64,000 bases of DNA, taken from positions 11,995 to 75,994 of IMG/VR virus record IMGVR_UViG_2595698393_000001; one strand, written 5' to 3'. This DNA is from a virus (taxonomy: Duplodnaviria > Caudoviricetes). Shown one piece after another: positions 10,169 to 40,822 of this stretch. The notes beneath the pieces are model-generated. The model was not told the DNA's origin and did no database searches. It saw only the letters and a program-made list of their open reading frames with translations. The position numbers and the translations under genes were made by a program. How positions within the stretch are numbered: position 1 is the stretch's first letter; each line of letters begins with the position of its first letter.

Positions 10169-10186
10169 GTCTTTAGTTTTTAAATA

Positions 10187-11523: not shown

Positions 11524-11637
11524 TCTAGCCGACCTTCACATTAAGGCGAAAGATATTCAAGGACCTATATAATTTGGAATCAGGGTGAAGGCTGAGGAAG
11601 GGTTGTACTAGGTCTTTTTTTAATTAAACTAGGGATT

Positions 11638-12003: not shown

Positions 12004-12008
12004 GGATT

Positions 12009-14160
12009 ATGAATAAGCCAGATATTATAGGTGTTGAGGTTTTAACTCCGGATGGAAGAGGAAGTATATTGTCATTACATCCTAGAAAAGTAATAGTTCA
12101 TTTGAACTCAAGGGGAGTCAATCAATTAATGAAAGGACTCAAAAGAGGGGAACTTCATTACGCATACGATTATTCAGATGTTGAAATAATAAAAGGTCAA
12201 TATTGTTTTAACGACGAAAGAATTAATTTGCAATACGATAAACTAACAAACTAAAGATTATGAATTTTATTAAGAGATTATTTGAAAAAAAGGAAACTAC
12301 TAATACTAACATCAATAAGAGCAAGGATCCAAGCGACTATAAAAAATGTAGCCTTAGTAGTGAATGGTACAGCGATAATCACTACTGTACTAAATGCAAA
12401 AAAAGCACAGGTCATAATGAATACATGAGTGATATATGTAATGGTTGTGGAAGCTTTGATACTCAAAAACGATTTGGAAGAAGTTATCGAAAAATAATGA
12501 TAGAAGGCAAATGGAAATACCAAGTAAGATACAAAAATGGGAATGAAGAAATAATAGATAAATGGTATTAACAAACTAAAAGGGGAAAGTTATGAATGCA
12601 AACGAATTAAGAAAGGGTATTTATGTAAGAGACAGGAGTGGTAAAGAAATGTTAATAGATTTTATTGATATGCCTAACAATAAGGTAGGTATGAATATGT
12701 TAGTCATGGGTATTCCTGTTCACCCTTTAACAGAATTTATTGACTACTTACAACCAATACCATTAACAGAAGAGTGGTTACTTAAGTTTGGGTTTGTTAA
12801 AAATGATTGGACTGATGGAGGTACAATCATTTATTACGGTTGGCAAAATGGTGCTGTTTTACTAGAGACAGATAGTAATAGTAGTTTTTTTATTTTAGAC
12901 GGAAAACACGAGGAATTTAATAATATAAAACACGTACACCAACTACAAAACCTATACTTTGCATTAACTGGAGAAGAACTAACAACTAAAAAATAAATTT
13001 AAAATTATGAAACTAAGTATTGAAACAAGTAAATTGCAAGGAGCATCACAATACAATTGGATAGCTAAGGTTGACAGCGTTAAATATGACGCCTTTAAGA
13101 TGAACTATCCAGGATCGGTTGCATACGGACAAACCGATGAACATGCATACAACAAGCTAAAAGCTATTTTAGAAAAAATGGGCCATACCGTTATAGAAGA
13201 AGAAGACGAAACTACTCCTAGAATAAAAACGGATGAATTAGGTTGGTCGGAGATAGTCAACTTAATAGGCAACGAAGACATTAGTCCGGCAGAAATACTA
13301 ACTGAGATCGCGTTAGACAAACAGAGTGTTGAGAAGGACACATTGATTGCTGAGACAAAGCTACAGCGTTTAAAAGCTAAAGAGTTGCAATTAAAAGCTT
13401 CGGCATTACATGTTATGAAGTATATAAAGAAGGAGTTTCCGTTGGTGGTAATTAACGACGGATTTATTGTTGTTGTAACTAGAGACGCAATAACCATAGA
13501 AAGTAACGTAATAAAATAACCAATGGGATATAAAGACGAGAACATCAAGCACAGAATGGGGTTTAATACTAGTAAACCTAAATACAAATGCCCTTATTGC
13601 AAGGGTGGAATAGGCGTTAAGGCTTCTTTTGTAAGTTGTCCTACATGCAAGAAGGTAGTAGACGGAGACGATTTAATAACAAGTAAATAAAGGTGATTAT
13701 GTTTCCAAAAGAAAAAGCGAAAAATCTTGTAGATAAAATGTACAAGGTAGCGACAAAAAACTATGCAGATAATGACTATGCTCAAATATTAGCAAATAAA
13801 ATGTGGTTTACAGAAGCTAAAGAGTCTGCTAAAATTTGTGTAAAAGAAATAATAACAGAATTAAATAGTATAGAGAGTAAAGATTTAAGTGATTTACAAT
13901 TTTGGAATGAGGTTGATTACGAAATAGATTCACTTCAAAATATAGGTTAAATGAAACTACTATCTAACGGTAAAGTAATACTAGAGCCACAAGAATACGC
14001 TAATGTATTAGAAACCATTAAAAGCCAAAAGAAGCTATTAGCAAACAATAACTTTTACATGGAGAAATGGACTAAAGAAATTAACTCTCTAAATAAACAA
14101 TTAGAGATTAAAGAAACTGAATTAAACGAAAGCCATTGCGGTGGATGTGTTAAAAATTAA
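12009..14160 (+). other. Run of small phage hypothetical ORFs (12009, 12260, 12592, 13007, 13693, 13951)
   Basis: Tightly packed co-directional ORFs. 12592-12996 has the recurrent IPLTEEWLLKFGF...HVHQLQNLYFALTGEEL motif; 12260 has CxxC pairs. Confidence 0.7.
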
Positions 14161-14172
14161 AACAATTAAATT

Positions 14173-14532
14173 ATGAAAAAATTATTTTTATTATTAGTAT
14201 TATTATCTTCAACTATTAGTTTTTCTCAGGATAAAGCATATAATCTTACAGTTATTGAACATTTAGGTGTTGATGTGTATAATTTGCTTTATGAAGCTAA
14301 AATATATGTAGGTGAAAATGTTGCAATTATAGATTCTGATTTATTCGATAGCGGATCTTTGAATTTTATATTTAGTTGCGTCAAGCAAGATGGAGATAAA
14401 AAGGTGTATAATGGATACATTTCTAAGGGGGATTTTAATAACTACCATTTTCATATGAGTATAACTAGCACATTAGTATATGTTAAAGTTAATGGACATG
14501 TATTCGCTTACGGTATAAAAAAGGATCAATAA
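14173..14532 (+). CDS. Secreted hypothetical protein
   Basis: Signal peptide MKKLFLLLVLLSSTISFS|Q. Confidence 0.7.
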   Translation: MKKLFLLLVLLSSTISFSQDKAYNLTVIEHLGVDVYNLLYEAKIYVGENVAIIDSDLFDSGSLNFIFSCVKQDGDKKVYNGYISKGDFNNYHFHMSITSTLVYVKVNGHVFAYGIKKDQ

Positions 14533-14598
14533 CATGAAAAACAAAATAAAAAGAATACTAGAGTGTCTTGAGCACTATCACAGATAAAATATAAGGCC

Positions 14599-14943
14599 AT
14601 GAAGATACCAAAAAGCTTTAAGTTATTCGCTACTACAATAAACGTTGAGTTCGATAGTGAGACGTTAAGCTACAACTCTACATTGGGAGACTGTAGTTTT
14701 TGCGACAACAAAATAAATCTTAGCGATAGCTATAAAGGAAATCCTATTCCAGAATCAACAATTGTTGACACGTTTTATCACGAGCGAACACATGTTATAC
14801 TCGATGCAATGGGAAGACACGAGTTATCTCAGGACGAAGAATTTGTTGAGGTATTTTCTAGGCTCCTAAGACAAGCAGACGAGACTGCGGAATTTAAGAA
14901 AGAGGAATTTGATTTATCAAAATTAATAAAAGACAGAGAATAA
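14599..14943 (+). CDS. HExxH metallopeptidase-like phage protein
   Basis: DTFYHERTHVILDAMG...DEEFVE. Confidence 0.7.
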   Translation: MKIPKSFKLFATTINVEFDSETLSYNSTLGDCSFCDNKINLSDSYKGNPIPESTIVDTFYHERTHVILDAMGRHELSQDEEFVEVFSRLLRQADETAEFKKEEFDLSKLIKDRE

Positions 14944-14944
14944 C

Positions 14945-15253
14945 ATGAAAAATATAACACTAGCATTATTACTATTAACTTCATTTATTAGCATAGGACA
15001 AATTTATGAGGATGATGAAGGTTATATTTCTACTATTATAAATCCAATTAGTATAGATGTTTATGATCGTACTATGGAAAACATTGTTCCCCTTCCATAC
15101 AATATAAACGACCATGTTTGCGATTGGAACATTAACAACGGAGTATACAATCCATGTAACGATAGTAACGAAATAGCTAAACTAAGAATAAGAATTGAAG
15201 AACTTGAAGCAATGCTAAAACGAATAGAAGCTAAATTAGATAAAAGAGAGTAA
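14945..15253 (+). CDS. Secreted protein with C-terminal coiled coil
   Basis: Signal peptide MKNITLALLLLTSFISIG|Q. Confidence 0.6.
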   Translation: MKNITLALLLLTSFISIGQIYEDDEGYISTIINPISIDVYDRTMENIVPLPYNINDHVCDWNINNGVYNPCNDSNEIAKLRIRIEELEAMLKRIEAKLDKRE

Positions 15254-15259
15254 CCCTTA

Positions 15260-15730
15260 ATGGACGGAAGAAAACTGCTTGCGGAGATTGATGCGTACGC
15301 TTCCAAGTGTTGGAGGCGTATCAATACCCATTACGGTTATTTTACGTACAGCTTTAGTTCCTACAGGCATAAGGTTATGATTGACGATCTTAAAATGAAA
15401 GAGTTAATCAATGACTGCGAAGAAGGAAAAATTAGTTACCAGGACATTGTATTTTTTATCAAAATAGTAACCATGCTAAAATTTAGCAGAGAATTTCACG
15501 AAGCTGCAGTGGTCCGGATAACCAAAGAAGACATGAAGGGATTCTGTAATAACAACTCCTACAAGTCTAGTAAAGAAAAACTTATAGAGTATAAGCTATT
15601 GATACCTACCATTAGCCGGAACCATTTCATAATCAACCCAAGGTATATCAATAAGTTCTACAAAACTAAGGTTGATATGTCGCCAGAGGACTTCAAAGAG
15701 TATAAGGAAAAACGATTGAATAAAGAGTAA
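15260..15730 (+). CDS. RepL-like winged-helix protein
   Basis: C-terminal SKEKLIEYKLLIPTISRNHFIINPRY resembles RepL-type wHTH. Confidence 0.45.
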   Translation: MDGRKLLAEIDAYASKCWRRINTHYGYFTYSFSSYRHKVMIDDLKMKELINDCEEGKISYQDIVFFIKIVTMLKFSREFHEAAVVRITKEDMKGFCNNNSYKSSKEKLIEYKLLIPTISRNHFIINPRYINKFYKTKVDMSPEDFKEYKEKRLNKE

Positions 15731-15763
15731 CTATAGAATTTTCAAATAGTTACTCTTTTTTTT
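15722..15763 (+). terminator. Intrinsic terminator
   Basis: AAAGAGTAACTAT...ATAGTTACTCTTT plus T run. Confidence 0.8.
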
Positions 15764-15837
15764 GTTCCAAATCCCGTATAAACCACTTTTTTGGTTATAT
15801 TTGCTTTATACTTATTACAAATTAAACGGGAAACAGT

Positions 15838-16398
15838 ATGAATCACGAATTAAAAGTTCAACAAGTAGTATTAAGCGGAGACGATTACTTGAATCTACAC
15901 AGAACTATAACGGCATTAGAAAAACAGAATGCAGATCAGATTAAGATTATCAATAATTTGCAAGACCTACACATTAAAATGCGCGCGAATGGAATAGGTA
16001 TTGATGATAGTGCGTATGGAGCAAAAAAAATAGTTGTCTTAAACCAATTTAACGATGAAGCTACTCTTAGTATTCGCGTTCAATCTAGAGATTAATCACA
16101 AACAATAAATAAAATGGCAAGATCAAAAAAATCGACTCCGGCAAGCGGAGAGGAATTAGACTTAACAACAAGTGCTAAGGCTAAAGAAGAAGTTACTCCA
16201 ACCAAAGAGATTGAGGTAAAGGAACCAGAAACAGTAGAAGCTCCCAAAGAAGAGGTTGTAGCTAAACCTGCAAAGATCGAATGGGACATTAAGAAGTTAG
16301 CTACTCAGAAAACAATAACAGTTATTACAAACTATATCAACAAAGGAGCAGTAGACTCTACGGAGTTAGAAGCGTTGTTAGATAGCTGTGTAAAGTAA
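15838..16398 (+). other. Two hypothetical ORFs (15838-16095, 16114-16398)
   Basis: ORF track; TATATTTG promoter at 15796-15803 and a terminator downstream. Confidence 0.6.
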
Positions 16399-19286: not shown

Positions 19287-20125
19287 ATGAATTACTTCCT
19301 AGATACAGAGTTCCTTGAGGGGCCACAAAAGAAAAGAATATTTGGAATACCTTATGGAGAAACACCAAATACTATAGACTTAATTTCTATTGGAATTGTT
19401 TCAGAGGACGGAAGAGAATATTACGCTATATCCAAAGACTTCAACCTCAAAGAAGCTTGGAACAGGTATCAGTTAAAAGATTTGCGAGGACTAAACTTTT
19501 CTTACGATATTTTTGGAGTTCCTAATGGTGTTTATAAGTATAAAAAAGAATACTGGATTAGAGAAAATGTGCTTAGACCTATCTACTATGAAATGATAGG
19601 AAAAGATATTTCATTCCATGATTATGATAAATATTTCACATATAAAAGATTTAAAAAACTTCTTGAAAGTCACGGAAAGACCAATAAACAAATATCGGAA
19701 GAAGTTAAGGATTTTATTTCTCAAAAAAATTATTAAACACTACTTCTGATGATTTTGCTACTCATGAATTAAAATCAACTTATGAAGGAAGAATGAAAGT
19801 TGTTGAAAATAGTTTTGGATTGCCAGGATTCTACGCATACTACGCTGATTATGATTGGGTGGTTTTCTGTTGGTTATTTGGAAATATGATTGACTTGCCA
19901 AAAGGATTTCCGATGTATTGCAATGACCTGAAGCAATGTTTAGATGAATATTGTGATTCAGTAAACGTTGTAGCTAAAACAATCCCTGGATGTCCTTTAG
20001 TAACAGCTAAGTCAGTTAAAGAAAATAATCCAAAATTTCCAAAACAAGACAAATCAAAACAGCACAACGCAATTGAAGATGCAAGATGGAATAAAGAACT
20101 TTTTAACTTTTTGAATAAGATATGA
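19287..20125 (+). CDS. DEDDh 3'-5' exo(ribo)nuclease, split by a 1-nt frameshift near 19725
   Basis: YFLDTEFLE in the first ORF; YADYDWV and HNAIEDARW in the second. One extra A in an A7 run joins them. Confidence 0.85.
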
Positions 20126-20376
20126 ATCCAAAACCAATTAAAAAACAAATATTTGCTGAGATAGTAGATAACGAGACTACACAATCTGGAATAATCATTG
20201 TTGGCGAATCTTCTGTTAAAAGAAATATTGCCAAGGTTATAGCTATCGGATCGCAAGTAGAAAATGTGAAAGTTGGTGATACTATCGACTACAACAAATT
20301 TGAAGCTACAGAATACACACACGAAGGTAAAAAGTGTATCTTTGTTAAAGAAGTAGGAACGCTATTTATACACTAA
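20122..20376 (+). CDS. groES: GroES-like co-chaperonin
   Basis: ETTQSGIIIV...AKVIAIGSQVENVKVGDTIDY. Confidence 0.85.
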   Translation: MNPKPIKKQIFAEIVDNETTQSGIIIVGESSVKRNIAKVIAIGSQVENVKVGDTIDYNKFEATEYTHEGKKCIFVKEVGTLFIH

Positions 20377-21904: not shown

Positions 21905-23533
21905 ATGAAAAATAAAATAACCATAATAATGATTTTGATGTCTATATCTTTCGGATATTCTCAGGTGTTGGTACCAGAGAATACCGGTTACGGATATGAC
22001 AACTTAACAACTGTAGAGCTAAATGCTCTTACCAAAAAGAAGGTAGGGGATATTTATTACAATGCAGATTTAGGGTATCACGTAAAATGGAACGGAGTAA
22101 TCTTTGAAAGTTTAGCTAGTGGTATTTCAGGAATAGATCCTGCGGACCAAGACAAGCTTAACAATATTTCAATTACTCAGCCAGTTAATTTAGATACTGT
22201 AGAATCTTTAGCTAATTCAGCATTACAAACAGAAACCGATCCAACAACTACTCCGGCCAACATAAAAGCAAAATTAGAATCACTTACTGGAACAAATAGA
22301 TTAGATGCTTTTGCTATAAAGAACTTATCAGCACAAGAAACGGACCCTAACTTAACTAAATCTAACGTAGAAGGCTTAGGTATTAGCTATACAAGTTTAA
22401 GTGATATTCCTGCGGTTAGTTCGCCTTTAACTTTTGGACCAGGGTTTACAAGGACTGGAGACAACATTGTTTTGGATAATCCATTTACAACGGCAAATGA
22501 AACAACATTAAATAGTGCTTTACAATCAGAAACAGACCCTTTATATTCTGCATGGGATAAGGATTACAATGACCTAATTAATAGACCTGTAAATTTAGTT
22601 ACTTATGACCCTTTGACTGCTCAAGATGTAGAAATCAGCGTTTTAGGCGGTAGCGATTCAGAAAGTTATATTTTAGAGTTCGACCCTAACGGATATGATT
22701 ATAGCGGAGAATCAAGCGGAACCGGAACAGTAGACCAAACCATTATAGACGGATCAACTAATGCGGTTAGTGGAAACGCTGTTTTTGATGGATTAAGCAG
22801 TAAATTGAACTTGTCAGGTGGCACAATGACTGGAGAATTAGATTTAAGTTTATTAATGCCCTCTTCTGTTGTTAGTTTTATTGGATCAAACACAGACCCT
22901 TTTTCTTCTGGATCATTCAAAGACTTTAACGTATCAGATGGTTCTACTTTAATTGATTATCAATTTTCTCCAACTTCTACAGCTCTATCTATAAGAACAA
23001 ACACACTAGTGAATCAAACAGCTTATACTGCAAAATACACACTACCGCACACAGGAACACCAGTTAATGATACTGATTTAATTACTAAAGTGTATGCGGA
23101 TGCTACTTACGGCGCAAGCGGTAGTTATGAAGAAGGTACTTTCACATTGACTAATCAAGATACAGATTATTCGTTTATAAGTCAAAACAATACATTTGTT
23201 CGGTTTGGTGATTTAGTGTACTATAAGGTTTATATCACTTTAAACAAAACAACTAATACTTCTGATGTTTTTTTCACCCTTAGTTCAGCTAGTACATTGC
23301 CAGCTCATGCTACTCAAAGTGTGAATAATATAAATCCTTATTTCTCAGACTTACTAAGTACTAGCGGAAACTTAAACGCAAATGCAACAGCACTATATTT
23401 TCAACACAATGGTAATGTTTGGTATTTAAAGCAATCTTACGCAGGTAATATAGGTGTAAATGTTTCAAATATAGATTCAACCTCTAGCGGAAATTTTGTA
23501 ATATCATTCTCAGGCACTTACTTAACAGATTAA
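21905..23533 (+). CDS. Tail-fibre-like protein with Sec signal peptide
   Basis: MKNKITIIMILMSISFGYS|Q; ETDP repeats; VDQTIIDGSTNAVSGNAVFDGLSSKLNLSGGTMTG fibre motifs. Confidence 0.7.
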   Translation: MKNKITIIMILMSISFGYSQVLVPENTGYGYDNLTTVELNALTKKKVGDIYYNADLGYHVKWNGVIFESLASGISGIDPADQDKLNNISITQPVNLDTVESLANSALQTETDPTTTPANIKAKLESLTGTNRLDAFAIKNLSAQETDPNLTKSNVEGLGISYTSLSDIPAVSSPLTFGPGFTRTGDNIVLDNPFTTANETTLNSALQSETDPLYSAWDKDYNDLINRPVNLVTYDPLTAQDVEISVLGGSDSESYILEFDPNGYDYSGESSGTGTVDQTIIDGSTNAVSGNAVFDGLSSKLNLSGGTMTGELDLSLLMPSSVVSFIGSNTDPFSSGSFKDFNVSDGSTLIDYQFSPTSTALSIRTNTLVNQTAYTAKYTLPHTGTPVNDTDLITKVYADATYGASGSYEEGTFTLTNQDTDYSFISQNNTFVRFGDLVYYKVYITLNKTTNTSDVFFTLSSASTLPAHATQSVNNINPYFSDLLSTSGNLNANATALYFQHNGNVWYLKQSYAGNIGVNVSNIDSTSSGNFVISFSGTYLTD

Positions 23534-23540
23534 AAATAAA

Positions 23541-25874
23541 ATGAAAAAAACAATTTACATATTATCGATTTTATTGCTTACTATTTCAGGAGTAAGCGCA
23601 CAGACTGTTATTAAAATTAAACAGCCTAATCCGCAACAGATAACAATAGCAGACGATTCAATAAAACTGAATGGTTCAACTTCTGTTCCTTTGTCTGATA
23701 TAATTAAGCCTATCACATTAGCGGAGTACAACGCAATGGATGCGGCTACTAAATTAAAGAATGCAGGACGTCAAATTATAGATCCTACAGGAGTTCCTAC
23801 AGCTATAAGTATAGTTGATGGTAGTGTTAGTACTGCTAAGATTGCTAATAGCGCTGTGAGTGGGATTAAAATACTTGATGAAGCGATAACAGAAAGTAAA
23901 ATAGCTGATGCAAGTATAACTGATACAAAAATAAACGCTGATACATATAAGAAATTATATTATGCTGTTCCTGATGGTTATATTTCTCCTAGGGATTATG
24001 GCGCAGTTATGGACGGTATAACTGACGATAGAATTGCATTTGTTAATACATTGACGGCTGCAAACACTTTAGGTAAAAGAATTTGGATTGATTCAGATAT
24101 TAATTTGGATGTTGAGGAAACGGGAACTAAATCAATTTTCATACCATCAAACACTTGGATAGAGGGAAGAGATAAAGACGTTAGGATTTTAATAAACAAC
24201 TTACTTAGCCCTGCATTTTACATTGCGCTCCAAGAAAATGTTACGTTTAAAAACATTACTTTCTCATACGACAACACTTATGACGCAACAATAAGATATA
24301 CAGACGCTTCTACATTAGCAAATGACAATCAAATAAAAAACTATCTAACAGCTAATAAAAGTGTTAATTTCAACGGATTAGAACCTATAAAGCTATCACC
24401 AGTTAACTATAGATATGGATTTAGGTTAGATGGATCTAAGAATGTAGTGTTTGAAAATGTAGTTTTTGATGCAGAGGGTGATTTAGCTAACGCATACCCG
24501 CTAGGATGGATCAAATTAATTGAACAATATTCAGAATCAACATCAGTTGTATCTGGTGGCGCAACAACGGTTTGTGAAAATATAACATTTAAAAATATAG
24601 ACTTCAACAAGTCTATAATGGGGATTCAAGGACTTGTTCAGGGTTTTTACATGAGTGATGTAAAGTCATATTACTTCACTGATTGCCAAGATGGAGACGG
24701 ATCAAATCTAGGAGGTGAACACGCAGGATCAACAGCTTATTGGATGCCGCCACCACATTTAATTTACTTAAACAATGACGGTTCAGTAAATCATCAATCA
24801 AAAGATATACACATTAACAATGTTATTGATTATGGCTTTTTGGTTGGAACAACAGCTGTAAGAGCAGATGGTAGAGATAATCAAGGCTACTTAACATCGT
24901 TAAAAACTGTAAATAACATGAGTAACGTTTATGTTGATGGTTATAAATCATATAGAAGAGATGGATTAGCAGATATTGGAGATATTACAAACGGAGTTTA
25001 TAAAAATATGTATAGTGAAAGTACTACTGATATTTTTGAGAGTTCAAGGCAATTTACACCTCTTAGGTTTGTTGGTATAATGGATGATGTTTTGTTTGAC
25101 AATATAGTTATAAAAGATTTATCAGATATAGCTTCTACATATCCAATTAGCAGGTCTTACGGAGATAACGTAACAATGAATAATATTCAGTTATTTAGTA
25201 AGACATTAAGCACTACATACACGGGCGTCATTGGTGTTTCAGGAAGCAATAACACTATAAAAAACCTAACATATACGATAGAAAACCACACGGATGCAGC
25301 ATCTAATTATCAAGGGTTGATATTCCACGACAATACAACTATGGATAGTGGATATAATAATAACTATGAAATAACTGTTAATGGTTGGAGAAATATAAAT
25401 AGCGATCCAATAGCGCTTAAGCCTAGAATGTTGTTTTCAAAAGCCATAAATCCAAACAATAACTATGCTAGATTGTATGATTCGTCAAATAACAATATAA
25501 TAGAGCAAATAAACGAATTCCAAACAGATACTTGGACTAAAACTGAGGTTGTAACACTAAGTAGTGGAGTTCAACAAACATTGACAATGAATATTCCTAG
25601 TGGTTACGCAATAAATAAAGTAATTGCTGTAACTCAAACATCTTTAGACGCAGGAACTACAGTTTCTATAGGCACGGTTTCTGGAACTGCAAACAATTTA
25701 ATCCCTTTAGTCGTTCAAGCTTCTGGAACTGGTTCTATTGCTATAAACAACATAAACGAAACATCCCTTTCAACAAGCGCAAGAAGTATATATATAAGAA
25801 CAAGTACCGGAGACTTTAACTCTACTGGAAAAGTCAAAGTTACAGTTGAATTAAAAAGATGGAGATTAAACTAA
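23541..25874 (+). CDS. Tailspike-like beta-helix (pectate-lyase-like) protein with signal peptide
   Basis: Signal peptide ...SGVSA|Q; DGSVSTAKIA-type repeats; SPRDYGAVMDGITDDRIAF beta-helix start. Confidence 0.75.
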   Translation: MKKTIYILSILLLTISGVSAQTVIKIKQPNPQQITIADDSIKLNGSTSVPLSDIIKPITLAEYNAMDAATKLKNAGRQIIDPTGVPTAISIVDGSVSTAKIANSAVSGIKILDEAITESKIADASITDTKINADTYKKLYYAVPDGYISPRDYGAVMDGITDDRIAFVNTLTAANTLGKRIWIDSDINLDVEETGTKSIFIPSNTWIEGRDKDVRILINNLLSPAFYIALQENVTFKNITFSYDNTYDATIRYTDASTLANDNQIKNYLTANKSVNFNGLEPIKLSPVNYRYGFRLDGSKNVVFENVVFDAEGDLANAYPLGWIKLIEQYSESTSVVSGGATTVCENITFKNIDFNKSIMGIQGLVQGFYMSDVKSYYFTDCQDGDGSNLGGEHAGSTAYWMPPPHLIYLNNDGSVNHQSKDIHINNVIDYGFLVGTTAVRADGRDNQGYLTSLKTVNNMSNVYVDGYKSYRRDGLADIGDITNGVYKNMYSESTTDIFESSRQFTPLRFVGIMDDVLFDNIVIKDLSDIASTYPISRSYGDNVTMNNIQLFSKTLSTTYTGVIGVSGSNNTIKNLTYTIENHTDAASNYQGLIFHDNTTMDSGYNNNYEITVNGWRNINSDPIALKPRMLFSKAINPNNNYARLYDSSNNNIIEQINEFQTDTWTKTEVVTLSSGVQQTLTMNIPSGYAINKVIAVTQTSLDAGTTVSIGTVSGTANNLIPLVVQASGTGSIAINNINETSLSTSARSIYIRTSTGDFNSTGKVKVTVELKRWRLN

Positions 25875-25878
25875 AATT

Positions 25879-26049
25879 ATGAAACAAACAATTAACATAG
25901 TATTATTTTTCATCCTTTCGTTAGGATTAAACGCTCAAACGGTTGAGGGTACAGTAGGTAGTGATGGTAGTTTAATACCTTACAACGTTTCAGGAGGTTT
26001 AGACGAAACGGCTGTAGACGCCAAAATAGAAACTTCAAACGCTTTAAAT
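25879..26049 (+). repeat. ~170-bp direct repeat, copy 1 (copy 2 at 29178-29348)
   Basis: Near-identical DNA encoding the first ~57 aa of both adaptor proteins. Confidence 0.9.
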
Positions 26050-26790
26050 TGGTATGATATAACAGCTAACAGAGTTTTAACTAGTAATGAAGGCGGTGGA
26101 TTGTTTTTGAATGAAAGTGCAAATGATTACACATTAACCATACCAACTCAAACAACAGGATTATATGAGAGCGATGTTGTCTATACAGCTATTAATTCAG
26201 GCTCAGGAAGTATTATAGTTAGACCAGAATCAGGTCTCACATTAGAATCTAAAGAATTGTTAGAAAACAAAAAAGGCTCTATAGCTAGAAAAGGTTCTAA
26301 TAAATGGATTTACTTTGGTGATTGGACTGATTATGTAGTAGTAAATCTTAATTCAACAAACGCTTCTAATCCTACAAGTGAAGATAATTCAACTACGGGA
26401 TTTACACTTGTTGGATCAGGAGCTGTTTTAACTAGTGATACTGATTCTTTTATTGGAACTTATGCAATAAAACTAACATCAGCAGGTTCCGTATCTACTT
26501 ACGCTTCATATGTATTTTCTGCTAATGCTGGTGATACATTTTCAGTTTCTTTCAGAATGAAAACAACCGACTCAGAAGGTAGTACTGGTTCTACTGCATG
26601 GACTAATTCATCTGGCGGAGCTGTTGGTGATTATATAGAAGTGGCTGACGGATGGGTTTCAAGAACGTATAACATAACAGCAACAGCAACAGGAAATATA
26701 TCATTAAGATTTTATGCTTCTGCATCAAGTTCAGAAGTTACTTCTGATAATATTTTTATAGATAACTTAATTATAGAAAAAACAAATTAG
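25879..26790 (+). CDS. Secreted adaptor-like fibre protein, copy 1 (C-terminal CBM/jelly-roll-like domain)
   Basis: Signal peptide ...LGLNA|Q; fibre-type domain ending KGSNKWIYFGDW; C-terminus NIFIDNLII. Confidence 0.6.
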   Translation: MKQTINIVLFFILSLGLNAQTVEGTVGSDGSLIPYNVSGGLDETAVDAKIETSNALNWYDITANRVLTSNEGGGLFLNESANDYTLTIPTQTTGLYESDVVYTAINSGSGSIIVRPESGLTLESKELLENKKGSIARKGSNKWIYFGDWTDYVVVNLNSTNASNPTSEDNSTTGFTLVGSGAVLTSDTDSFIGTYAIKLTSAGSVSTYASYVFSANAGDTFSVSFRMKTTDSEGSTGSTAWTNSSGGAVGDYIEVADGWVSRTYNITATATGNISLRFYASASSSEVTSDNIFIDNLIIEKTN

Positions 26791-26791
26791 T

Positions 26792-28132
26792 ATGAGAAAT
26801 ATAGTATTAATACTATTGTTTTTTAATATAAGCTTTTCTTTCGGTAAAGATTATTGTGAAGATTTGTATAGTAATTTTTCAGTTTACGGTGTAGTTGGTG
26901 ATGGTGTTGCGGATGACACAGTAGCGTTACAGTTAGCTTTGGATTCAGATAGTAATTTATTAGCTGATTCAAACTCGACTTTTTTAGTTACATCTACTTT
27001 ATATTTAGACACAAGACTTAATCAAACAGTAGACTGGAATAATTCTACAATGATAACCACAACAGAAAATTTATTATTCATAGAAATAGATAAGAGAAAT
27101 TCTAATGGTGGAACTACAATAATGAAAGATTTGTTTATAGATGCAAATTACATAGGTATGCAGGGGGTTAGCGCATTAAGTAGAGTTGATTTATACAATA
27201 TAGATGGAATCAACTATATTCAGGGAGCTACAGCATCAAGCAGTCCATTTCATATAAGGACTGAGTTTTTAACAAATGATGATGACAGCTATGGAGAATG
27301 GATAATTGATAATTGCGATGTTAACGGCTTAAGAGGTTATGGAAATTATTGTGATTACTGCGATGGTCTTGGAGCTGCAAACGGATATTTGGTTTATTGG
27401 AGAGAAGTTCCAACAGTAGCAACTACAATAACATTTAAAAACGGAAGTTCTTTAAATGGCTTTGGTATTGATGGACAAAATGTCGCTGTATTTAGTCCGT
27501 CTATAGATGTGAGTAATACATTAGCTAATACTGTTTTTGATAATATAACAACAAAAGGATTCGATAGAAGAGGATGGAAATTGTTTTGCGGAAACATAAC
27601 CGTTAAAAATTGTTTGATTCAAGATAATCCAGAGTCTGACGGGGTTACAACATGCGGAACAACAGGAACTGGACTTAATTGCACTCAACTTGGTGAAACT
27701 GGAACTAGTAATTTAAGTGCTGGGTTATTTACATTTGGAACAGGAAGTGGTTCTACCGGCTCTTATAATTTACTAGTAGAGAATACTACGTTTGTTGGTG
27801 AATTATCAGGTGGAACAGATAATAGAGTTATTTTTGCAAATACAAATGATGTAAGTCTTAATAATTGCACTTTTTCAGGAGGGGCAGATTTAGCTCTAAC
27901 CACAGCAATAGATGATATAAATGTATGTAATACAACATTTGGAACTAGTTCTACCTTGTACGAGTACAATATGAGTACACCATATGGAACTATAAACTTA
28001 GATATTGACAACGTATATGCAACAACACCATCTTTCACATTAACCACAATCAACAACACGGATATTAATTGCGATGTCACTATTGTTTCAACATCGCAAA
28101 AAAATCAGAATTTAATTTACTGGAGATATTAA
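26792..28132 (+). CDS. Secreted beta-helix polysaccharide-lyase-like protein with C-terminal KNQNLIYWRY
   Basis: Signal peptide; YGVVGDGVADDTVALQLAL; Cys-rich. Confidence 0.7.
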   Translation: MRNIVLILLFFNISFSFGKDYCEDLYSNFSVYGVVGDGVADDTVALQLALDSDSNLLADSNSTFLVTSTLYLDTRLNQTVDWNNSTMITTTENLLFIEIDKRNSNGGTTIMKDLFIDANYIGMQGVSALSRVDLYNIDGINYIQGATASSSPFHIRTEFLTNDDDSYGEWIIDNCDVNGLRGYGNYCDYCDGLGAANGYLVYWREVPTVATTITFKNGSSLNGFGIDGQNVAVFSPSIDVSNTLANTVFDNITTKGFDRRGWKLFCGNITVKNCLIQDNPESDGVTTCGTTGTGLNCTQLGETGTSNLSAGLFTFGTGSGSTGSYNLLVENTTFVGELSGGTDNRVIFANTNDVSLNNCTFSGGADLALTTAIDDINVCNTTFGTSSTLYEYNMSTPYGTINLDIDNVYATTPSFTLTTINNTDINCDVTIVSTSQKNQNLIYWRY

Positions 28133-28146
28133 ATATATAAATTATG
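28088..28146 (+). repeat. ~55-bp direct repeat, copy 1 (copy 2 at 31213-31271)
   Basis: ...TTAATTTA(C/T)TGGAGATATTAAATATA(T/G)AAATTATG spans the C-terminal peptide, the stop and the next start codon. Confidence 0.85.
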
Positions 28147-28419
28147 ACAAAATTAATAGAAAAAACACAATCAAAAGCAGAGAACTATTGGATATTATTC
28201 TTTAGAATACCTGGACTATTTTTATTCTTTCTTCCGTTTATACCTGTAACTATGGGGTATATTAATTCTAACGTTGATAAGGTTAGATTAGATGGTGGAG
28301 ATTGGCAATTACTTGGATTAGGATTTTTCCTAGTTTGGGGAAGTTCTTATTTTGGTATTTTAGGAAACAAATTAGGAATGTTCTTATCTAGCAAGTTTGG
28401 ATTAAACAATAAAGAGTAA
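28144..28419 (+). CDS. Two-TM membrane protein (holin candidate)
   Basis: 91 aa with two hydrophobic segments, near the lysis genes. Confidence 0.5.
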   Translation: MTKLIEKTQSKAENYWILFFRIPGLFLFFLPFIPVTMGYINSNVDKVRLDGGDWQLLGLGFFLVWGSSYFGILGNKLGMFLSSKFGLNNKE

Positions 28420-28526
28420 GGATATGAAAACATTAATAGCAATATCTATTATATGCTTGATTATTCAATACTTCCTAGAAGACACTAAATCAAGTAGAGA
28501 TAATACACCGAAAACAGATCCATAGA

Positions 28527-29173
28527 ATGTACAATAAAATCCCCCCTTTTTTTTGGGAACAACAAAATTTGTAAGTAGATACAACTATAAAAGGAGGATT
28601 TTAGCTTTCAGGTTGCGTTGCGCAAAAAAAAGATTGAGACAGAAAGCTTGGGTAAGAAGAATAATACGTAGCAAAGTATTGGTTTATATTCCTGTAGCTA
28701 TGCTTTCTATTAAGCTTTACATAGAGAGAGAGGCTAGAGTTACTGCAGAAGTAAAGGCGGCACTATACGAAAGCCAGGCAAAGAGCACTATTAAAACCTT
28801 TGACGATATGAAGGTTAGTTATTTCGAGAAGCTTTTAAGAAAGAACTACTTCATAATGCTAGGCACTAATGATTATTACGACGAGCAGTTTACAAGTAGA
28901 CTTGGTTTTGAAGGAATAGATTATTTAGGAAAAAAAGATTCAGATTTACAAGACACTACAAGCGCGTATGGCTATTCCAAAAGCGACATGAAGGTTGTAT
29001 ACTCTTTAGATCGAGAATGGTTCCGAGAATACTTTATAGTAAAGAAAGATACTCAGGAATTAGCTGTATTCAAATTTTGTAGAATAGAACTAAATAAAGA
29101 TACAGTGGTAGGAGGACTTCCTTTTGATATGGAAAAACTAAAAAAAGAATTAAAACTTAAAGATATAGATTAA
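28527..29173 (+). CDS. Membrane-anchored PAS-domain-like protein
   Basis: MLGTNDYYDEQF...LGFEGIDYLGKKDSDL....A..YSKSDMKVV resembles a PAS fold. The ATG at 28527 joins the frame if one base is added in the C6T8 run. Confidence 0.55.
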
Positions 29174-29177
29174 TAAG

Positions 29178-30092
29178 ATGAAACAAACAATTAGCATAGT
29201 ATTATTTTTCATCCTTTCATTAGGATTAAACGCTCAAACGGTTGAGGGTACAGTGGGTAGTGATGGTAGTTTAATTCCTTATAACGTTTCAGGAGGATTA
29301 GACGAAACTGCTGTAGACGCTAAAATAGAAACAGCTAACGCATTAAATATATCTAGCTTAACATCAGATAGAACGATTGCAAAAACTGATTTTGGCGGCA
29401 TTATAAAGCATACCACAACAGGAACTAAAAGAATTAACATTCCAACGGAATCGGTGGGAGTTTTTGAAGATGATGGTGTCGTTTCTATTTTAGCTAATGG
29501 TGGCGGAAAAACTATTATAAATCATTCAAATGGAGTTACTATAGATAGACTACAATTAGAAGGAAAAGGTAAGATGGGAACTATAGCAAGAAACGGTTCT
29601 GATAATTGGTTGTATTGGGGATCTTTTGAACCTTATGTAAATGATAATCCAGAAGTATATGTGTTTTTAAATAGCCTAAGTAAAAGCAATAACACAGATT
29701 CGACAACTGGTTTAACTGAATACCAATCTACTATTTCTAGTGTTCTTGACGGAGGAATTTACGTTACTCAGGTGGAAAGTTTAAACGGTTCTAATATCGA
29801 TAGGCTTTTAGAAGGCATACCTACAACATATGGATTAGTATACGAGTATGAATTTGAAGCAAGAAGTATAGAGGGCGCTGCAATTAGTAAACATATTAGA
29901 TTTTCTACAGTTTTGGAAAATATAAACATAACGCTTTCTGACGCATGGACTAAATACACAGGAACTTTTACTGCTGATGGTACGCAAATGACTTTTAATG
30001 CTTATACAAATAGACTTTCTAGTGGTGCAGTTTCTGGAAGTATAGGCGATAAACTTCAAGTTAAGAATTTGTCAATTAAATTAGTAGAGTAA
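29178..30092 (+). CDS. Secreted adaptor-like fibre protein, copy 2
   Basis: Paralogue of 25879-26790; C-terminus WTKYTGTFTADGT is CBM-like. Confidence 0.65.
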   Translation: MKQTISIVLFFILSLGLNAQTVEGTVGSDGSLIPYNVSGGLDETAVDAKIETANALNISSLTSDRTIAKTDFGGIIKHTTTGTKRINIPTESVGVFEDDGVVSILANGGGKTIINHSNGVTIDRLQLEGKGKMGTIARNGSDNWLYWGSFEPYVNDNPEVYVFLNSLSKSNNTDSTTGLTEYQSTISSVLDGGIYVTQVESLNGSNIDRLLEGIPTTYGLVYEYEFEARSIEGAAISKHIRFSTVLENINITLSDAWTKYTGTFTADGTQMTFNAYTNRLSSGAVSGSIGDKLQVKNLSIKLVE

Positions 30093-31257
30093 TGAAAAGT
30101 GCATTTTTTTATTAATAATACTATCTAATACATTGCAATCACAAATAAAAACGGTTGATGACTGGCAGTTAGATTTCGATTCCGAAACTACTGAAGATGC
30201 ATATTATTTAAGCTTATCTAACTCAAATGATGATGATGATAACTACTATATAGACTTTTCGCAATACGTAAGCATGTATCAAGCGTCTGGCGACGAATCA
30301 TATTTAGATGTGGCGGTAGATTTATTTGAAAACAAAGTGTCTCAATCTTCATTAATGGTTGATGGGTATTATGGATGGTTAAGGGATGCAGATAATAGCG
30401 GTGGAGGAATAACAAACGGTGGAGGTGGAAATGACGGACAAGAAATACCATTATCACAAACTAGAGGATTTGGAAGAACGGCAGCACATATGTTATGGGT
30501 TTTAAGTACTGCTACTGAATATCTATCTAAAAACGATAATCAAGCGCAATTCGATACTAATTATTTATGGTTTAAAACAAATATATGTGAGAAGTGGAGA
30601 AGCCGCGATTTAGCAAACATATACAGAATAAGGACGCATATAATGTCTCATTGGGCGCAAATAGGTTTTTACATGGATAAGATAGAATCAAACGCAAACT
30701 ACAGAAAGTGGTACGATGATTTTAACACAGATATATCTGATGGAGTTTACGAGGGTAGTATGAGAGAACAATTAAGAATAGTTTCTTTAGTTGGTGGTGA
30801 TGGTTATGTATGGTCTGGAGAATGGGGTGTGACTACAAACGTGAACGATGTTTCACACGCTAACGCAGAGGTTGAGTTAATGGTTGCAGGTGCTGAAAGT
30901 TCTGATTACTGGAGCTTAACAGATATGTCAAGACTGATTAATACTTTCGATGAAAATGTTTACAGAAGTAGCACTCAGGGATGGGAGTATATGGATGGAA
31001 CATCTGTATCACTAAACGTGCAATTATGGGAGCAAGGATGGATTAAATTAGGTAGATTTGACTATAATTTACAATTGAAACTTAATGATATAGTGTTTAA
31101 TACTCATTCGCAAAAGTATAAAAAAAGGGGGTTATCAGAAATGGCATACAATAAAGCCTATTTAGACGGTGTTGTTTACCCTTTAGAATACACTAGTCCA
31201 GAGACCGAACCAAGCACATCAACAAAAAACCAAAAATTAATTTATTGGAGATATTAA
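30092..31257 (+). CDS. Secreted alpha-helical glycoside hydrolase/lyase-like protein with C-terminal KNQKLIYWRY
   Basis: ATG at 30092 plus one T in the T7 run gives the signal peptide MKSAFFLLIILSNTLQS|Q; MYQASGDESYLDVA is alpha/alpha-toroid-like. Confidence 0.55.
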
Positions 31258-31268
31258 ATATAGAAATT

Positions 31269-31775
31269 ATGAAAGTTTCAGGAATAATTGCATTTATCTT
31301 AGCTATAGTAATGACCATTATAAGCAAGGCTCCTAGTTTTTCACAACTAGCGTTAACATTATACACACCATTGTTGGACGGTTTTTTGTTTTGTATTGCA
31401 TTAGCTTTTTTAATACGCTCTAAGGATGCTTTAAATAGAAACGATGTGATACTATGGAAGTGCGAAACGAAGTACTTTGACATACTTAGCTGCGTGTTTT
31501 TTGGACTTATATTGATTACTCCGGTAACACATACAGAAGAGTTTATTCAAATAGCGCACATGATAGCTACCGGAATGGCAATATTGATAAGCTACACAGC
31601 TTTAGTTGCTCAACAAACTGATAGAATGATGAAATCAGGAAGTATTCTAGGTGTTGTTGTTGGAGGTGTTGGATTTTTGATTGGATTCTTAACTCCATAT
31701 TACAGCACGGGAGAAGGCGAATTAATAGCTTCATTGCCGTTGGCAGTTCATATATTTTTTACCAAAACAAAATAG
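31269..31775 (+). CDS. Multi-pass membrane protein
   Basis: About five hydrophobic segments; start placed at 31269 from alignment of the repeat. Confidence 0.65.
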   Translation: MKVSGIIAFILAIVMTIISKAPSFSQLALTLYTPLLDGFLFCIALAFLIRSKDALNRNDVILWKCETKYFDILSCVFFGLILITPVTHTEEFIQIAHMIATGMAILISYTALVAQQTDRMMKSGSILGVVVGGVGFLIGFLTPYYSTGEGELIASLPLAVHIFFTKTK

Positions 31776-31820: not shown

Positions 31821-32366
31821 ATGAACTTAGATTATTACAAAAATATAGTGAGAAATCACCCAGAGGAATTTGAGCTATTTAAGAATAAGTTCTTTCCTAT
31901 TGTGATGAAGTGGGAAGGTGGAGGCGAACTACACAACGTTAAAGGTGATTCAGGCGGTTGGACTATTTGGGGAATAGCATACAACTACAACAAAGCTCTA
32001 TTCGATGATTTTAATGACTTTAAAGACACAACAAGAGAAGAAGCATCTTATATTGCATTTGTAAAGTATTACTTGGCGGCCAACGCAGAATTGGTACCAA
32101 TGGATGCGAAGCTATACTATTTTGATATGTGCTATAACATGGGCGTATCAAGAGGTATTAAGATACTTCAAAAATGCATAGGTGTTAATGCCGATGGTAG
32201 AATTGGAAATATTACTAAGTCAAAAATACACAATGTAACAGAGTGCTGTTTGATGATTGAAAGAAATAAGTTCTATAATAGGCTAGTTGAAAACAACTAT
32301 AAAATGGGGAAATTCATTAAAGGTTGGTTAAATAGAAGTAAGGGAATATTTGATTTTAAATACTAA
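31821..32366 (+). CDS. Endolysin, glycoside hydrolase family 108 with peptidoglycan-binding domain
   Basis: WEGG....DSGGWTIWGI; FDMCYNMG; ADGRIGNIT; FIKGWLNR. Confidence 0.92.
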   Translation: MNLDYYKNIVRNHPEEFELFKNKFFPIVMKWEGGGELHNVKGDSGGWTIWGIAYNYNKALFDDFNDFKDTTREEASYIAFVKYYLAANAELVPMDAKLYYFDMCYNMGVSRGIKILQKCIGVNADGRIGNITKSKIHNVTECCLMIERNKFYNRLVENNYKMGKFIKGWLNRSKGIFDFKY

Positions 32367-32531: not shown

Positions 32532-33084
32532 ATGACAAAAACGATAGCAATAATAGCAATTACAATACTAATTACATCCTTAATTTGGTGGTTTGGAATA
32601 AATCCAGTATCAGATAAATCGTACATTAATGTAATAAAAGAGAAAGATAGTATAATTTTGGTGCAAAAAAATATTATCTTAGACGCGTATAAGGATATTA
32701 ACGACTCAATACAATATGGAAAAGACATCCAACACATCAAAAAACTTCATGATCGTTATCCTGATGATGCTATTCTCGATAGCTTGCTTCGCGCAGGACA
32801 AGAATTACGTTAGTGTTCATAGAGATAGTTTGTATAACGCTTTACTTAATATTTCTGAACTAAAAGTTGAGAATGCATTTTTAAGGAAAAAGAACGATAA
32901 TCAAAAAGTAATCATAACTGCTCAAGAAATAATCATTTCCGAAACAGAATTTAAAACTGAAATACTGACTAAGCAAATAAGCATAGAACAAAGTACCGGC
33001 ACTAAAAAATGGTGGAATGGTTTTGGTAAAGGAGTTGCTACTGGAGGTGTAATAGTTTTAGGATTATTCTTAGGGTTAAAATAA
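32532..33084 (+). CDS. Overlapping spanin-like pair (32532-32813, 32716-33084)
   Basis: TM plus coiled-coil ORF overlapping a signal-peptide ORF with a C-terminal TM, right after the endolysin. Confidence 0.5.
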
Positions 33085-33089
33085 GTTTT

Positions 33090-33692
33090 ATGAAGGGATT
33101 AAATCATTTTATAGTACACATACCGGAAAAGTGGAGTCAAACATATAAGACCGAAAGCGGACTTGAATTGCATGCAGACAGAAGGTTTTCTTTAAGACAA
33201 GTAGGTAATACCATTGTAAAGGTAATTGAAACGCCATACAACTACGATGGTCCCGTTAAGATTGGAGACACACTATTTATCGATGTAAATGCATTGTCTC
33301 AACAATCGTATGTTATTGGAGGTGAGTTAGAAAACCAACATCTAATTGATAGGGAGAAAAAATTATACAAAATTGATTCTTCTTTGATATTCGCATATAA
33401 AGAAACTGATGATTCTGAATGGATAGGTTTTGAAGAGAGTATTTTATGTAAAAGCATAAAGGAGGTTAAGGTAGAAAAAAAACCTAGCCTTATCTATATT
33501 CCAGAAGACAACAAGGAGAAAACTATTGAAGGTAAGTACATTGTAGATGTTCTAAATCCTATAGCGGAATCAATGGGAATAAAAAAAGGAGATACTATTT
33601 ATGTTGAGAAACATTTATTTTTAGATGTTAGGTTAGAAGATAAAGAGTATGTAAGAATTAGAGTTAGAGATATTTTGGGATTAGCAATTTAA
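33090..33692 (+). CDS. Tandem GroES-like domain protein
   Basis: TESGLELH...VKIGDTLFID and SLIYIP...GIKKGDTIYV...YVRIRVRDILGL. Confidence 0.6.
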   Translation: MKGLNHFIVHIPEKWSQTYKTESGLELHADRRFSLRQVGNTIVKVIETPYNYDGPVKIGDTLFIDVNALSQQSYVIGGELENQHLIDREKKLYKIDSSLIFAYKETDDSEWIGFEESILCKSIKEVKVEKKPSLIYIPEDNKEKTIEGKYIVDVLNPIAESMGIKKGDTIYVEKHLFLDVRLEDKEYVRIRVRDILGLAI

Positions 33693-40282: not shown

Positions 40283-40822
40283 ATGAACGATGAAAATAAA
40301 TTAGAACCATTATGGCTAGATATTTCTGGTTATGATGGTTTATATCAAGCAAATAGAAGAGGAGATATTAGAAAGTGTAATAGTAAAATTTTAGTCAAAC
40401 AAATATACAGAAGTGGTTATTTATGTGTATTTTTACTAGACTCGAAAGGAAAACAAAAAAGCAAGCAAGTTCATCGATTAATTGCAGAAACATTTATTCC
40501 TAATCCAGACAATAAACCTCAAGTGAACCATATAAACGGAATCAAAGATTGTAATTCTACTGGTAATTTAGAATGGAATACAGCAAAAGAAAACGTAAAA
40601 CACGCAATAGACAATAGATTGATGAAAACTGGTTGCGAAAGAAGCAACAGTTATTTTGACTCAAATCAAATAGAACTTATAAAGCAATGTATAGAAAAAG
40701 GGATTAGTCAGAAATTAATAGCTGATTCTTTTGGAGTATCAACTGTTACTATAAGTGACATTAAATTAAAGAAAAGATACAAGAGCGAAAAAAGGTTAAC
40801 AGTAGCGAATAAAAACCAGTAA
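40283..40822 (+). CDS. NUMOD4-HNH homing endonuclease
   Basis: WLDISGYDGLYQAN; VHRLIAETFIPNPDNKPQVNHINGIKDCN. Confidence 0.9.
   Translation: MNDENKLEPLWLDISGYDGLYQANRRGDIRKCNSKILVKQIYRSGYLCVFLLDSKGKQKSKQVHRLIAETFIPNPDNKPQVNHINGIKDCNSTGNLEWNTAKENVKHAIDNRLMKTGCERSNSYFDSNQIELIKQCIEKGISQKLIADSFGVSTVTISDIKLKKRYKSEKRLTVANKNQ

Follow-up and report, generated by a model that had tools for sequence, protein, structure and literature searches.

Host-type signal peptides on the receptor-binding gene block of a Cellulophaga podovirus hint at maturation outside the cytoplasm

Why should the fibre and spike genes of a tailed phage begin with the export signals of host envelope proteins? The question is raised by a gene block at 21905-31257 (+) of a 64,000-nucleotide stretch of viral DNA (Duplodnaviria; Caudoviricetes), positions 11,995 to 75,994 of IMG/VR virus record IMGVR_UViG_2595698393_000001, hereafter the window. 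A sequence-only reading of the window had assigned Sec signal peptides to six large proteins in the receptor-binding position, and had taken them to be virion parts that are exported to the periplasm and join particles at or after lysis or, alternatively, glycan-active proteins secreted by lysogens. The computational analysis described here finds that the signal-bearing receptor-binding proteins (RBPs) are real and extend far wider than the window. Host-type signals are carried by the whole spike and fibre set of this phage and by relatives from three phage families, which hints at maturation outside the cytoplasm and joining to the particle at lysis.

Signal peptides of the receptor-binding block

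Signal peptides were called with a hydrophobicity and charge heuristic of our own, not with SignalP, on ATG-initiated open reading frames (ORFs) of at least 50 amino acids (aa). A Sec signal of this kind is defined by a positive n-region, an h-region of ~7-15 hydrophobic residues, and small residues at -3 and -1. The heuristic flagged 13 of the 92 ORFs of this size. Among the 16 ORFs of at least 300 aa, five of the six inside the block were flagged, against none of the ten elsewhere (Fisher p = 0.0014). The 542-, 777-, 303-, 446- and 304-aa proteins all start with Met and Lys or Arg, followed by a hydrophobic core of 8-13 residues and a small-x-small site, with cleavage predicted at GYS|Q, VSA|Q, LNA|Q, SFG|K and LNA|Q, respectively. 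The claim of six Sec signals is thus borne out for these five proteins, the sixth being obtained only through a -1 shift (see The sixth gene); similarly, four of the five Gln residues claimed at +1 are found in the five in-frame signals as sequenced, and the fifth belongs to the frameshifted gene.

The block opens with RBP 'A' (542 aa, 21905..23533, +), a member of phrog_17619 (virion structural protein) that is 72% identical to gp101 of phage phi19:1. Its signal peptide (aa 1-19, 21905-21961, GYS|Q) is followed by a family-specific anchor, ETDP repeats, the motif KLNLSGGTMTG and a distal domain, and the protein is proposed to be the primary adaptor fibre. RBP 'B' (777 aa, 23541..25874, +; 97.8% identical to phi19:1 gp102) has a signal peptide (aa 1-20, VSA|Q), an anchor B, STAKIA-type repeats and, from about aa 145, a right-handed beta-helix, depolymerase-like body. 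Adaptor 'C1' (303 aa, 25879..26790, +; phrog_16053, tail fiber; 98.4% identical to phi19:1 gp103) consists of a signal peptide (aa 1-19, LNA|Q), a conserved anchor C (QTVEGTVGSDGSLIPYNVSGGLDETAVDAKIE) and a distal domain resembling a carbohydrate-binding module (CBM), and its partner is a beta-helix enzyme-like protein (446 aa, 26792..28132, +; 98.9% identical to phi19:1 gp104) with a signal peptide (aa 1-18, SFG|K), 11 Cys residues and a C-terminal tag ending in KNQNLIYWRY. A second pair is formed by adaptor 'C2' (304 aa, 29178..30092, +), with a signal peptide (LNA|Q) and anchor C as in C1, and an (alpha/alpha)6-toroid, glycan-enzyme-like partner (374 aa from a TTG codon, or 388 aa if shifted; 30133..31257, +) ending in KNQKLIYWRY.

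The fibre hallmarks attributed to these proteins can be read in the translations: three ETDP, KLNLSGGTMTG, the STAKIAN/ESKIAD repeats, and the beta-helix starts YGAVMDGITDD and YGVVGDGVADD. The PHROGs families of the block proteins, matched over nearly their full length, are 'virion structural protein', 'tail fiber protein' and 'pectate lyase'. No Pfam or NCBIfam family was matched above cut-off by any of the six, and no PDB sequence was matched at E <= 0.1 by the 542-, 777-, 446- or 374-aa protein. The absence of a signal-less fibre gene from the window extends to the complete genome. The remaining 11,994 bases encode early and replication functions on the minus strand and nothing fibre-like, and beyond the block the genome has no further gene with fibre or spike hallmarks, the large virion proteins without a signal (1613 and 1871 aa) being crAss-muzzle-like or of unknown fold and not fibre-like.

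Conservation of the cleavage site

Gln at +1 is the Q-rule of the Bacteroidetes, followed by most signal peptidase I (SPI) substrates of the phylum (PMC5837995 and PMC10653852). The sequence-only reading had regarded this residue as a trait of exported Bacteroidota proteins, and the N-termini of the block do evolve like cleaved Sec signals that obey the Q-rule (PMC5837995). A phmmer search with the 542-aa protein against 1.84 billion representatives returned 161 matches at E <= 0.001, with 67 of the best 150 of these 161 flagged as signal-bearing. Among the matches listed, a signal accompanies anchor A in 16 of 16, including four with miscalled or truncated starts in which a remnant is visible. 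The peptides are not a product of chance. When 13 of these anchor-A homologues (21-44% identity to the query) were aligned, no column was invariant except M1, K2 and Q20, the last being the predicted +1 position. The h-region is hydrophobic in every one (hydropathy 2.1-3.2) and residue -1 is always S, G or A, yet pairwise identity is 0.23 in the h-region versus 0.35 in the mature domain. An h-region that is hydrophobic but variable, next to conserved -1 and +1 positions, is the signature of a cleaved signal and not of a sequence-specific structural element.

The trait is not confined to fibre A. Nine cassettes were compared, from the window, phi46:3, phi18:3, phi13:2, phi19:1, Nekkels, Ingeline, a metagenomic locus (L010) and a distant 81-kb viral contig (L014); with N-termini judged by eye, a signal is present in 33 of 33 complete cassette genes and Gln at +1 in 31 of them, the two exceptions being orthologues of the 446-aa protein with FG|K. 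On the distant contig, consecutive 424-, 1091- and 839-aa proteins (9001-16069) directly follow terminase- and portal-like genes. Each of the three begins with a signal peptide and has Gln at +1, and the trait thus extends past the cultured Cellulophaga phages. The search for related loci was seeded with a 6-sequence alignment; two scans of genome contigs, one with the anchor A alignment and one with P0065, found no relative.

An alternative explanation is that the hydrophobic N-terminus stays uncleaved and serves as a structural plug, an oligomerisation helix or a membrane tether, its signal-like look and its Gln having been inherited from host-derived genes. Host ancestry is plausible for the 777-aa beta-helix, given its ~45% identity to exported proteins encoded on chromosomes of the host genus, and cytoplasmic assembly is the rule for tailed phages. 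The pattern of conservation, however, is the opposite of that expected of a structural element, since the h-region is the part that is least conserved and the -1 and +1 positions the most. In addition, the signal precedes anchors that are phage-specific, and the sequon depletion described below would be left unexplained if the proteins never met the periplasm. The host homologues, moreover, start differently, with lipoboxes or other domains; simple inheritance along with the enzyme domain therefore does not account for the phage signals. An uncleaved N-terminus is thus considered improbable.

Receptor-binding and virion identity

The AlphaFold2 model of the 777-aa protein, built from a 45-sequence alignment, has a predicted local distance difference test (pLDDT) score of 83.8 and consists of a long beta-helix from about residue 145, preceded by 140 low-confidence residues. 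The best PDB matches to this model in Foldseek are phage tailspikes (Det7, K2-2 TSP, Fri1 gp49, Sf6 and CBA120), with E values of 5e-9 to 1e-6 and a probability of 1.00, but with low TM-scores (0.2-0.4) and 9-15% identity. The model of the 542-aa protein (6 sequences, pLDDT 36) was left out of the fold search. For the enzyme-like partners the ESM Atlas gives leads only: the lead for the 446-aa protein is a pectate-lyase-like beta-helix (Pect-lyase_RHGA_epim, 0.97), and that for the 374-aa protein is an (alpha/alpha)6 toroid, the closest cluster bearing the name GH76 (TM 0.83). A carbohydrate-binding module (PF02018) is found in a relative of the 303- and 304-aa proteins.

Orthologues of four block proteins are annotated as parts of a virion. 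In the GenBank record of the siphovirus phi19:1, gp101 to gp104, which are 72, 98, 98 and 99% identical to the 542-, 777-, 303- and 446-aa proteins, carry the note 'structural protein' on the basis of tandem mass spectrometry (MS/MS) proteomics, and gp085 to gp087 of the podovirus phi18:3 carry the same MS/MS note; these are annotations. All seven begin with a signal-like N-terminus. The other phi19:1 proteins with an MS/MS or 'part of structural virion' note (gp85, 87, 88, 90, 91, 92, 94, 96, 97 and 98) all sit in the head and tail gene blocks. With a beta-helix that matches tailspikes and orthologues annotated from the virions of phi19:1 and phi18:3, the earlier assignment of the block to receptor-binding-type virion proteins is supported.

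These annotations also bear on the possibility that the block encodes secreted, glycan-active accessory proteins that are no part of the virion, the MS/MS signal coming from co-purifying material and host recognition being left to the large signal-less virion proteins. The 1613-aa protein, with Big_9 and cadherin-like domains, could bind a host, and an integrase-like gene is present in the genome. But the seven annotated orthologues come from two unrelated virion types, and the other noted phi19:1 proteins are confined to head and tail blocks. Furthermore, the architecture of a conserved anchor with a swapped distal domain is that of modular RBPs, phage tailspikes are the best fold matches, and the cassette is the main large block common to otherwise unrelated Cellulophaga phages; sharing between unrelated phages of one host genus is as expected for host-range determinants. 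Such a purely secreted set is therefore very unlikely. The lysogen-secreted alternative of the sequence-only reading is accordingly disfavoured by the MS/MS notes, although secretion may be a second role, given the integrase-like gene.

Depletion of the glycosylation sequon

Bacteroidota O-glycosylate non-cytoplasmic proteins in the periplasm at D-S/T-A/L/V/I/M/T, as set out in a review (PMC12871550), and an exploratory count of this motif was made. An initial guess that the RBPs would be enriched for this sequon was refuted, the motif being depleted. In 19 signal-bearing cassette RBPs, D[ST][AILMTV] is observed 24 times versus 61.4 expected from shuffles (0.39), and in 21 signal-less virion proteins and RBP homologues 42 times versus 57.2 (0.73). 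The difference between the two sets has a conditional binomial p of 0.008, a value that is optimistic because the proteins are related. Control motifs are not depleted, the ratios being 1.10 for the reversed motif, 1.21 for E[ST]h, 1.13 for N[ST]h and 1.50 for D[AG]h; for D[ST] followed by another residue, observed over expected is 0.77. Selection against this motif is understandable only in proteins that come into contact with the glycosylation machinery of the periplasm.

A shared cassette with a branched architecture

When all ORFs of the genome that contains the window were compared by tblastn with phi19:1, Ingeline and Nekkels, the overlap between the podovirus and the siphoviruses was limited to the cassette, a pair of membrane proteins with low identity and a few small accessory proteins; it included no tail proteins. 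Within the cassette, anchor A differs by phage family, reading QVLVPENTGYGY in Pachyviridae, QGVAPLVDQVRF in Assiduviridae and QVKAKQVRVD in Ingeline, whereas anchor C is near-identical across all three families and anchor B is near-identical in Pachyviridae and Assiduviridae. Anchor C is found on proteins of 303, 304, 312, 317, 559 and 658 aa, and anchor B on proteins of 777, 785, 815 and 843 aa. Proteins with either anchor have the layout of tailspikes and tail fibres, a conserved N-terminal anchor with an exchangeable distal domain. Since A is family-specific while B and C are shared, A would be the subunit that docks on the tail, carrying B and C with it.

In five of five pairs (303/446, 304/374, 312/416, 317/434 and phi12:1 gp50/gp51), an adaptor gene is followed by an enzyme-like gene whose product ends in NQ(K/N)LIYWR(Y). 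The fuller tag, ...ST(S/-)(Q/T)KNQ(N/K)LIYWRY, ends both the 446-aa beta-helix (28087-28132) and the 374-aa toroid (31212-31257), two unrelated folds, and is the sole similarity between the two proteins. The same tag also closes phi46:3 gp083, Ingeline_34 and phi12:1 gp51, the gene being in each case the one that follows an anchor-C/CBM-like adaptor, and we infer that it is a docking peptide. The block may thus encode a branched receptor-binding complex composed of fibre A, tailspike B, adaptors C1 and C2, and the two glycan-enzyme-like partners.

Signal-less relatives

Versions of the same modules exist without a signal. The collagen-like fibre gp50 of phi12:1 is, over its C-terminal 290 aa, 37% identical to the distal 250 aa of adaptor C2, and has its own N-terminus and collagen repeats where C2 has a signal and anchor C. 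The adjacent gp51 shares 72% identity with the 374-aa enzyme and has the NQKLIYWR tag as well, and its Met aligns with the predicted mature N-terminus of the 374-aa protein. A signal is found in neither of the two (0/2). The signal is thus all-or-none per cassette, as expected if partners must share a compartment. Signal-less phage proteins with a 777-type beta-helix are the phi4:1 structural protein P0009 and proteins P0012, P0050 and P0058. The 777-aa protein has 56 strong beta-helix homologues. A script assigned a signal peptide or lipoprotein signal to 47 of them, a truncated remnant could be discerned by eye in five others, and the last four have none. Chromosomal homologues of ~750 aa in Cellulophaga, Maribacter and Zobellia are of exported types, with lipoboxes or AQ|NY sites. 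The sequence-only reading had mentioned neither these exported host homologues nor the signal-less phi12:1 modules, nor the frameshift in the sixth gene.

The signal-less versions lend some weight to a dual fate for the block proteins, where the signals are functional but the exported pool does not enter virions; only a minority of copies, folded in the cytoplasm ahead of export with the signal kept or not, would be built into particles. The exported pool might destroy receptors or capsule from within, ease release or exclude superinfection. Consistent with this, signal-less versions of the modules fold in the cytoplasm, several of the proteins are enzyme-like (the beta-helix and (alpha/alpha)6 leads), and the phage encodes other small exported proteins and two Cpn10 co-chaperonins; virion presence would be explained, too, with no assembly in two compartments. 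On the other hand, the anchors, which would be expected to matter for virion attachment alone, are never seen without a signal (A in 16 of 16 listed matches, B in 8 of 8, C in 4 of 4), and the signal is also carried by the non-enzymatic fibre A and the CBM-like adaptors. Nor is there an outer-membrane sorting signal by which the exported enzymes would reach surface glycans. A dual fate is unlikely on balance, while retaining a real share of the probability.

A proposed route of assembly

Signals for sorting beyond the periplasm were sought in the block. No C-terminal domain of the type IX secretion system (T9SS; Por_Secre_tail or type B) was matched in the six proteins in Pfam or NCBIfam at E <= 0.01, and none of the six N-termini has a lipobox with Cys at +1, where host homologues differ (for instance, ...SGVSC|KKD). 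With no T9SS domain and no lipobox, export would probably end in the periplasm. Interspersed with the cassette are holin-like genes (91 and 176 aa), the gene for a signal-less GH108 endolysin and a spanin-like gene.

The preferred reading is that the receptor-binding complex is exported, processed and held in the periplasm, and docks on particles made in the cytoplasm when the holin opens the membrane; the probability given to it is roughly one half. Late in infection, all subunits would be exported by the host Sec machinery as Sec preproteins. Signal peptidase I would cut after the small-x-small site, and glutaminyl cyclase would turn the N-terminal Gln into pyroglutamate. The subunits would then fold and associate in the periplasm, where the lack of a T9SS or lipoprotein sorting signal would retain them. 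Heads and crAss-like tails would meanwhile be built in the cytoplasm, free of fibres, until the neighbouring holin-like proteins open the inner membrane and the compartments mix, at which point A would dock through its family-specific mature N-terminus, bringing B and C. A wider version of this reading, for tailed phages of marine Flavobacteriia in general, is offered more tentatively: virions would be assembled in two compartments, with an RBP complex that is pre-assembled in the periplasm, capped by pyroglutamate and purged of sequons, is encoded by a portable signal-anchor cassette found across a crAss-like podovirus and two siphovirus families, and makes particles infectious only at holin opening.

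Several points weigh against periplasmic assembly. Export and cleavage are inferred, as is the moment at which docking would occur, and efficient docking in the brief interval of lysis is an assumption. We know of no precedent for tailed-phage fibres that mature outside the cytoplasm, and the modules can evidently fold without export, because signal-less versions exist in phi12:1 and phi4:1. Virion presence is taken from database notes on orthologues and not from this phage, and the sixth gene as sequenced has no in-frame signal. The sequon test compares related proteins, and signal-less proteins are themselves mildly depleted (0.73). Finally, disulfide formation, put forward earlier as a benefit of export, is ruled out as a general reason for it because five of the six proteins have 0-2 Cys each; the argument applies only to the 446-aa protein, with its 11 Cys.

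If the periplasmic route is correct, RBP maturation in the periplasm would represent a new assembly route in which infectivity is tied to lysis, and it could account for the use of a single host-range cassette by unrelated virion types that infect one host genus. The finding also bears on annotation, where signal peptides are often argued to mark non-structural phage genes, as well as on the expression of such depolymerases and on the engineering of host range in Bacteroidota phages.

The sixth gene

The start of the sixth gene is split (30092..30141, +). Its ATG at 30092 reads MKSAFFY followed by two stop codons, whereas the long ORF, open from 30088, reads ...CIFLLIILSNTLQS|QIKTV and has its first common start at TTG 30133. 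The hydrophobic core and an LQS|Q site lie upstream of this TTG, in the frame of the long ORF. The two frames join in a run of seven T residues (T7, 30104-30110), and an in-frame signal needs a -1 shift or one extra T. The length of ~388 aa given earlier for this protein applies if such a shift or an extra T is granted, the product from the TTG being 374 aa as sequenced.

A second difference in homopolymer length is found 1.6 kb upstream of this T7 run. A T8 run in the window (28547-28554; compare L004, 9386-9398) is T9 in phi13:2, and because of the T8 run the ATG at 28528 in the window hits a stop codon, so that the 206-aa gene starts at a TTG; in phi13:2 the ATG is in frame. As this second difference is also at a gene start, we think that a homopolymer miscount is the more likely cause of the split in the sixth gene.

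Source phage and neighbouring genes

The genome is 75,994 bp long, with ~33% G+C. A megablast search with the block region matched 27 phage records, every one a Cellulophaga phage, and the gene order is that of the Pachyviridae podoviruses phi46:3, phi18:3 and phi13:2. The late region includes genes for a terminase, a portal and large virion proteins, among them the 1613-aa protein with the Big_9 and cadherin-like domains (48584-53425, +). It is followed by a 241-aa protein (53429-54154, +) whose match to PF25729 (crAss_MUZ_C, the C-terminal domain of the Crassvirus muzzle) scores 70.6 bits (cut-off 27). Judged by these matches, the phage is a marine Cellulophaga podovirus with a crAss-like tail.

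Between and after the receptor-binding genes lie putative lysis genes. A 91-aa holin-like protein with two hydrophobic segments (28144..28419, +; 80% identical in Ingeline) accompanies the cassette in Pachyviridae and Ingeline, and is followed by the 206-aa gene (28553..29173, +), which encodes a basic protein with one hydrophobic segment. Downstream of the sixth gene are a 176-aa multi-pass, holin-like membrane protein (31245..31775, +; 33% identical to a phi19:1 protein), the endolysin (GH108 and PG_binding_3, with no signal peptide; 31821..32366, +) and a 122-aa spanin-like protein (32716..33084, +). The last is assigned from sequence features only, a signal- or lipobox-like stretch at its N-terminus (SIAC, FA|Q) and a hydrophobic segment at its C-terminus. 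It resembles a unimolecular spanin, and its gene overlaps that of a 93-aa N-terminally anchored protein (32532-32813).

Other genes of the phage have features of their own. A 418-aa tyrosine-recombinase-like protein (4680-5936, +) matches Phage_integrase at 28.9 bits (cut-off 27.1) and also Phage_int_SAM_5, although the phage family is usually treated as lytic. Two Cpn10 (GroES-like) genes are present (20122-20376 and 33090-33692, +), the product of the second being a 200-aa protein with Cpn10 in its C-terminal half. An HNH endonuclease gene (40283-40822, +) lies between an exonuclease-like gene and the head genes, and related HNH genes are dispersed in phi19:1. Small proteins with signal peptides or lipoprotein signals include those of 119 aa (14173-14532, +), 130 aa (45180-45572, -) and 93 aa (genome positions 368-649, -), which have counterparts of 96-97% identity in the unrelated siphovirus phi19:1; further small exported-type proteins, all with Gln after the site, are encoded at 8063-8356 (-), 14945-15253 (+) and 55527-55730 (-). 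A scan for sigma-70 promoters and terminators was at chance level, with 64 promoter-like sites versus 64.3 expected.

Comparison with known systems

In the textbook account, assembly of tailed phages is wholly cytoplasmic. Full-text searches, and passages of PMC6199706, PMC5723332, PMC8776804 and PMC10367356, yielded no description of signal peptides on tailed-phage fibres, and the term 'signal peptide' occurs 0 times in PMC8776804 and in the crassvirus atlas (PMC10172136). The nearest case (PMC10367356) is that of Porphyromonas gingivalis phages, which encode five Q-rule proteins of unknown function that are proposed to modify the host outer membrane and not to be virion parts. The block proteins share with Q-rule SPI substrates a small-x-small site followed by Gln, the known substrates being cellular envelope proteins (PMC5837995 and PMC10653852).

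In its fold, and in its layout of an N-terminal anchor with a variable body, the 777-aa protein is like the beta-helix tailspikes of Det7 (gp208), Sf6, HK620 and CBA120 (TSP2-4) and the Klebsiella and Acinetobacter depolymerases. To our knowledge, the known beta-helix tailspikes lack the signal peptide that the 777-aa protein has, and they reach their fold in the cytoplasm. In the branched systems of CBA120 (TSP1-4) and G7C (gp63.1/gp66) one fibre carries the others. A comparable arrangement is suggested here by a family-specific A versus a shared B and C, and by paired adaptor and enzyme genes; the difference is that every subunit in the present block has a signal peptide.

Other late phage proteins cross or enter the inner membrane by the host Sec system before lysis, among them secreted and signal-arrest-release (SAR) endolysins, spanins and filamentous-phage coat proteins. 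Of these, the endolysins and spanins do not form part of the virion. The filamentous-phage coat, in contrast, consists of virion proteins with cleaved signals, and is assembled by extrusion at the membrane, whereas the block described here belongs to a phage that is tailed and lytic and has its own set of holin, endolysin and spanin-like genes, for which the corresponding event would be docking at lysis.

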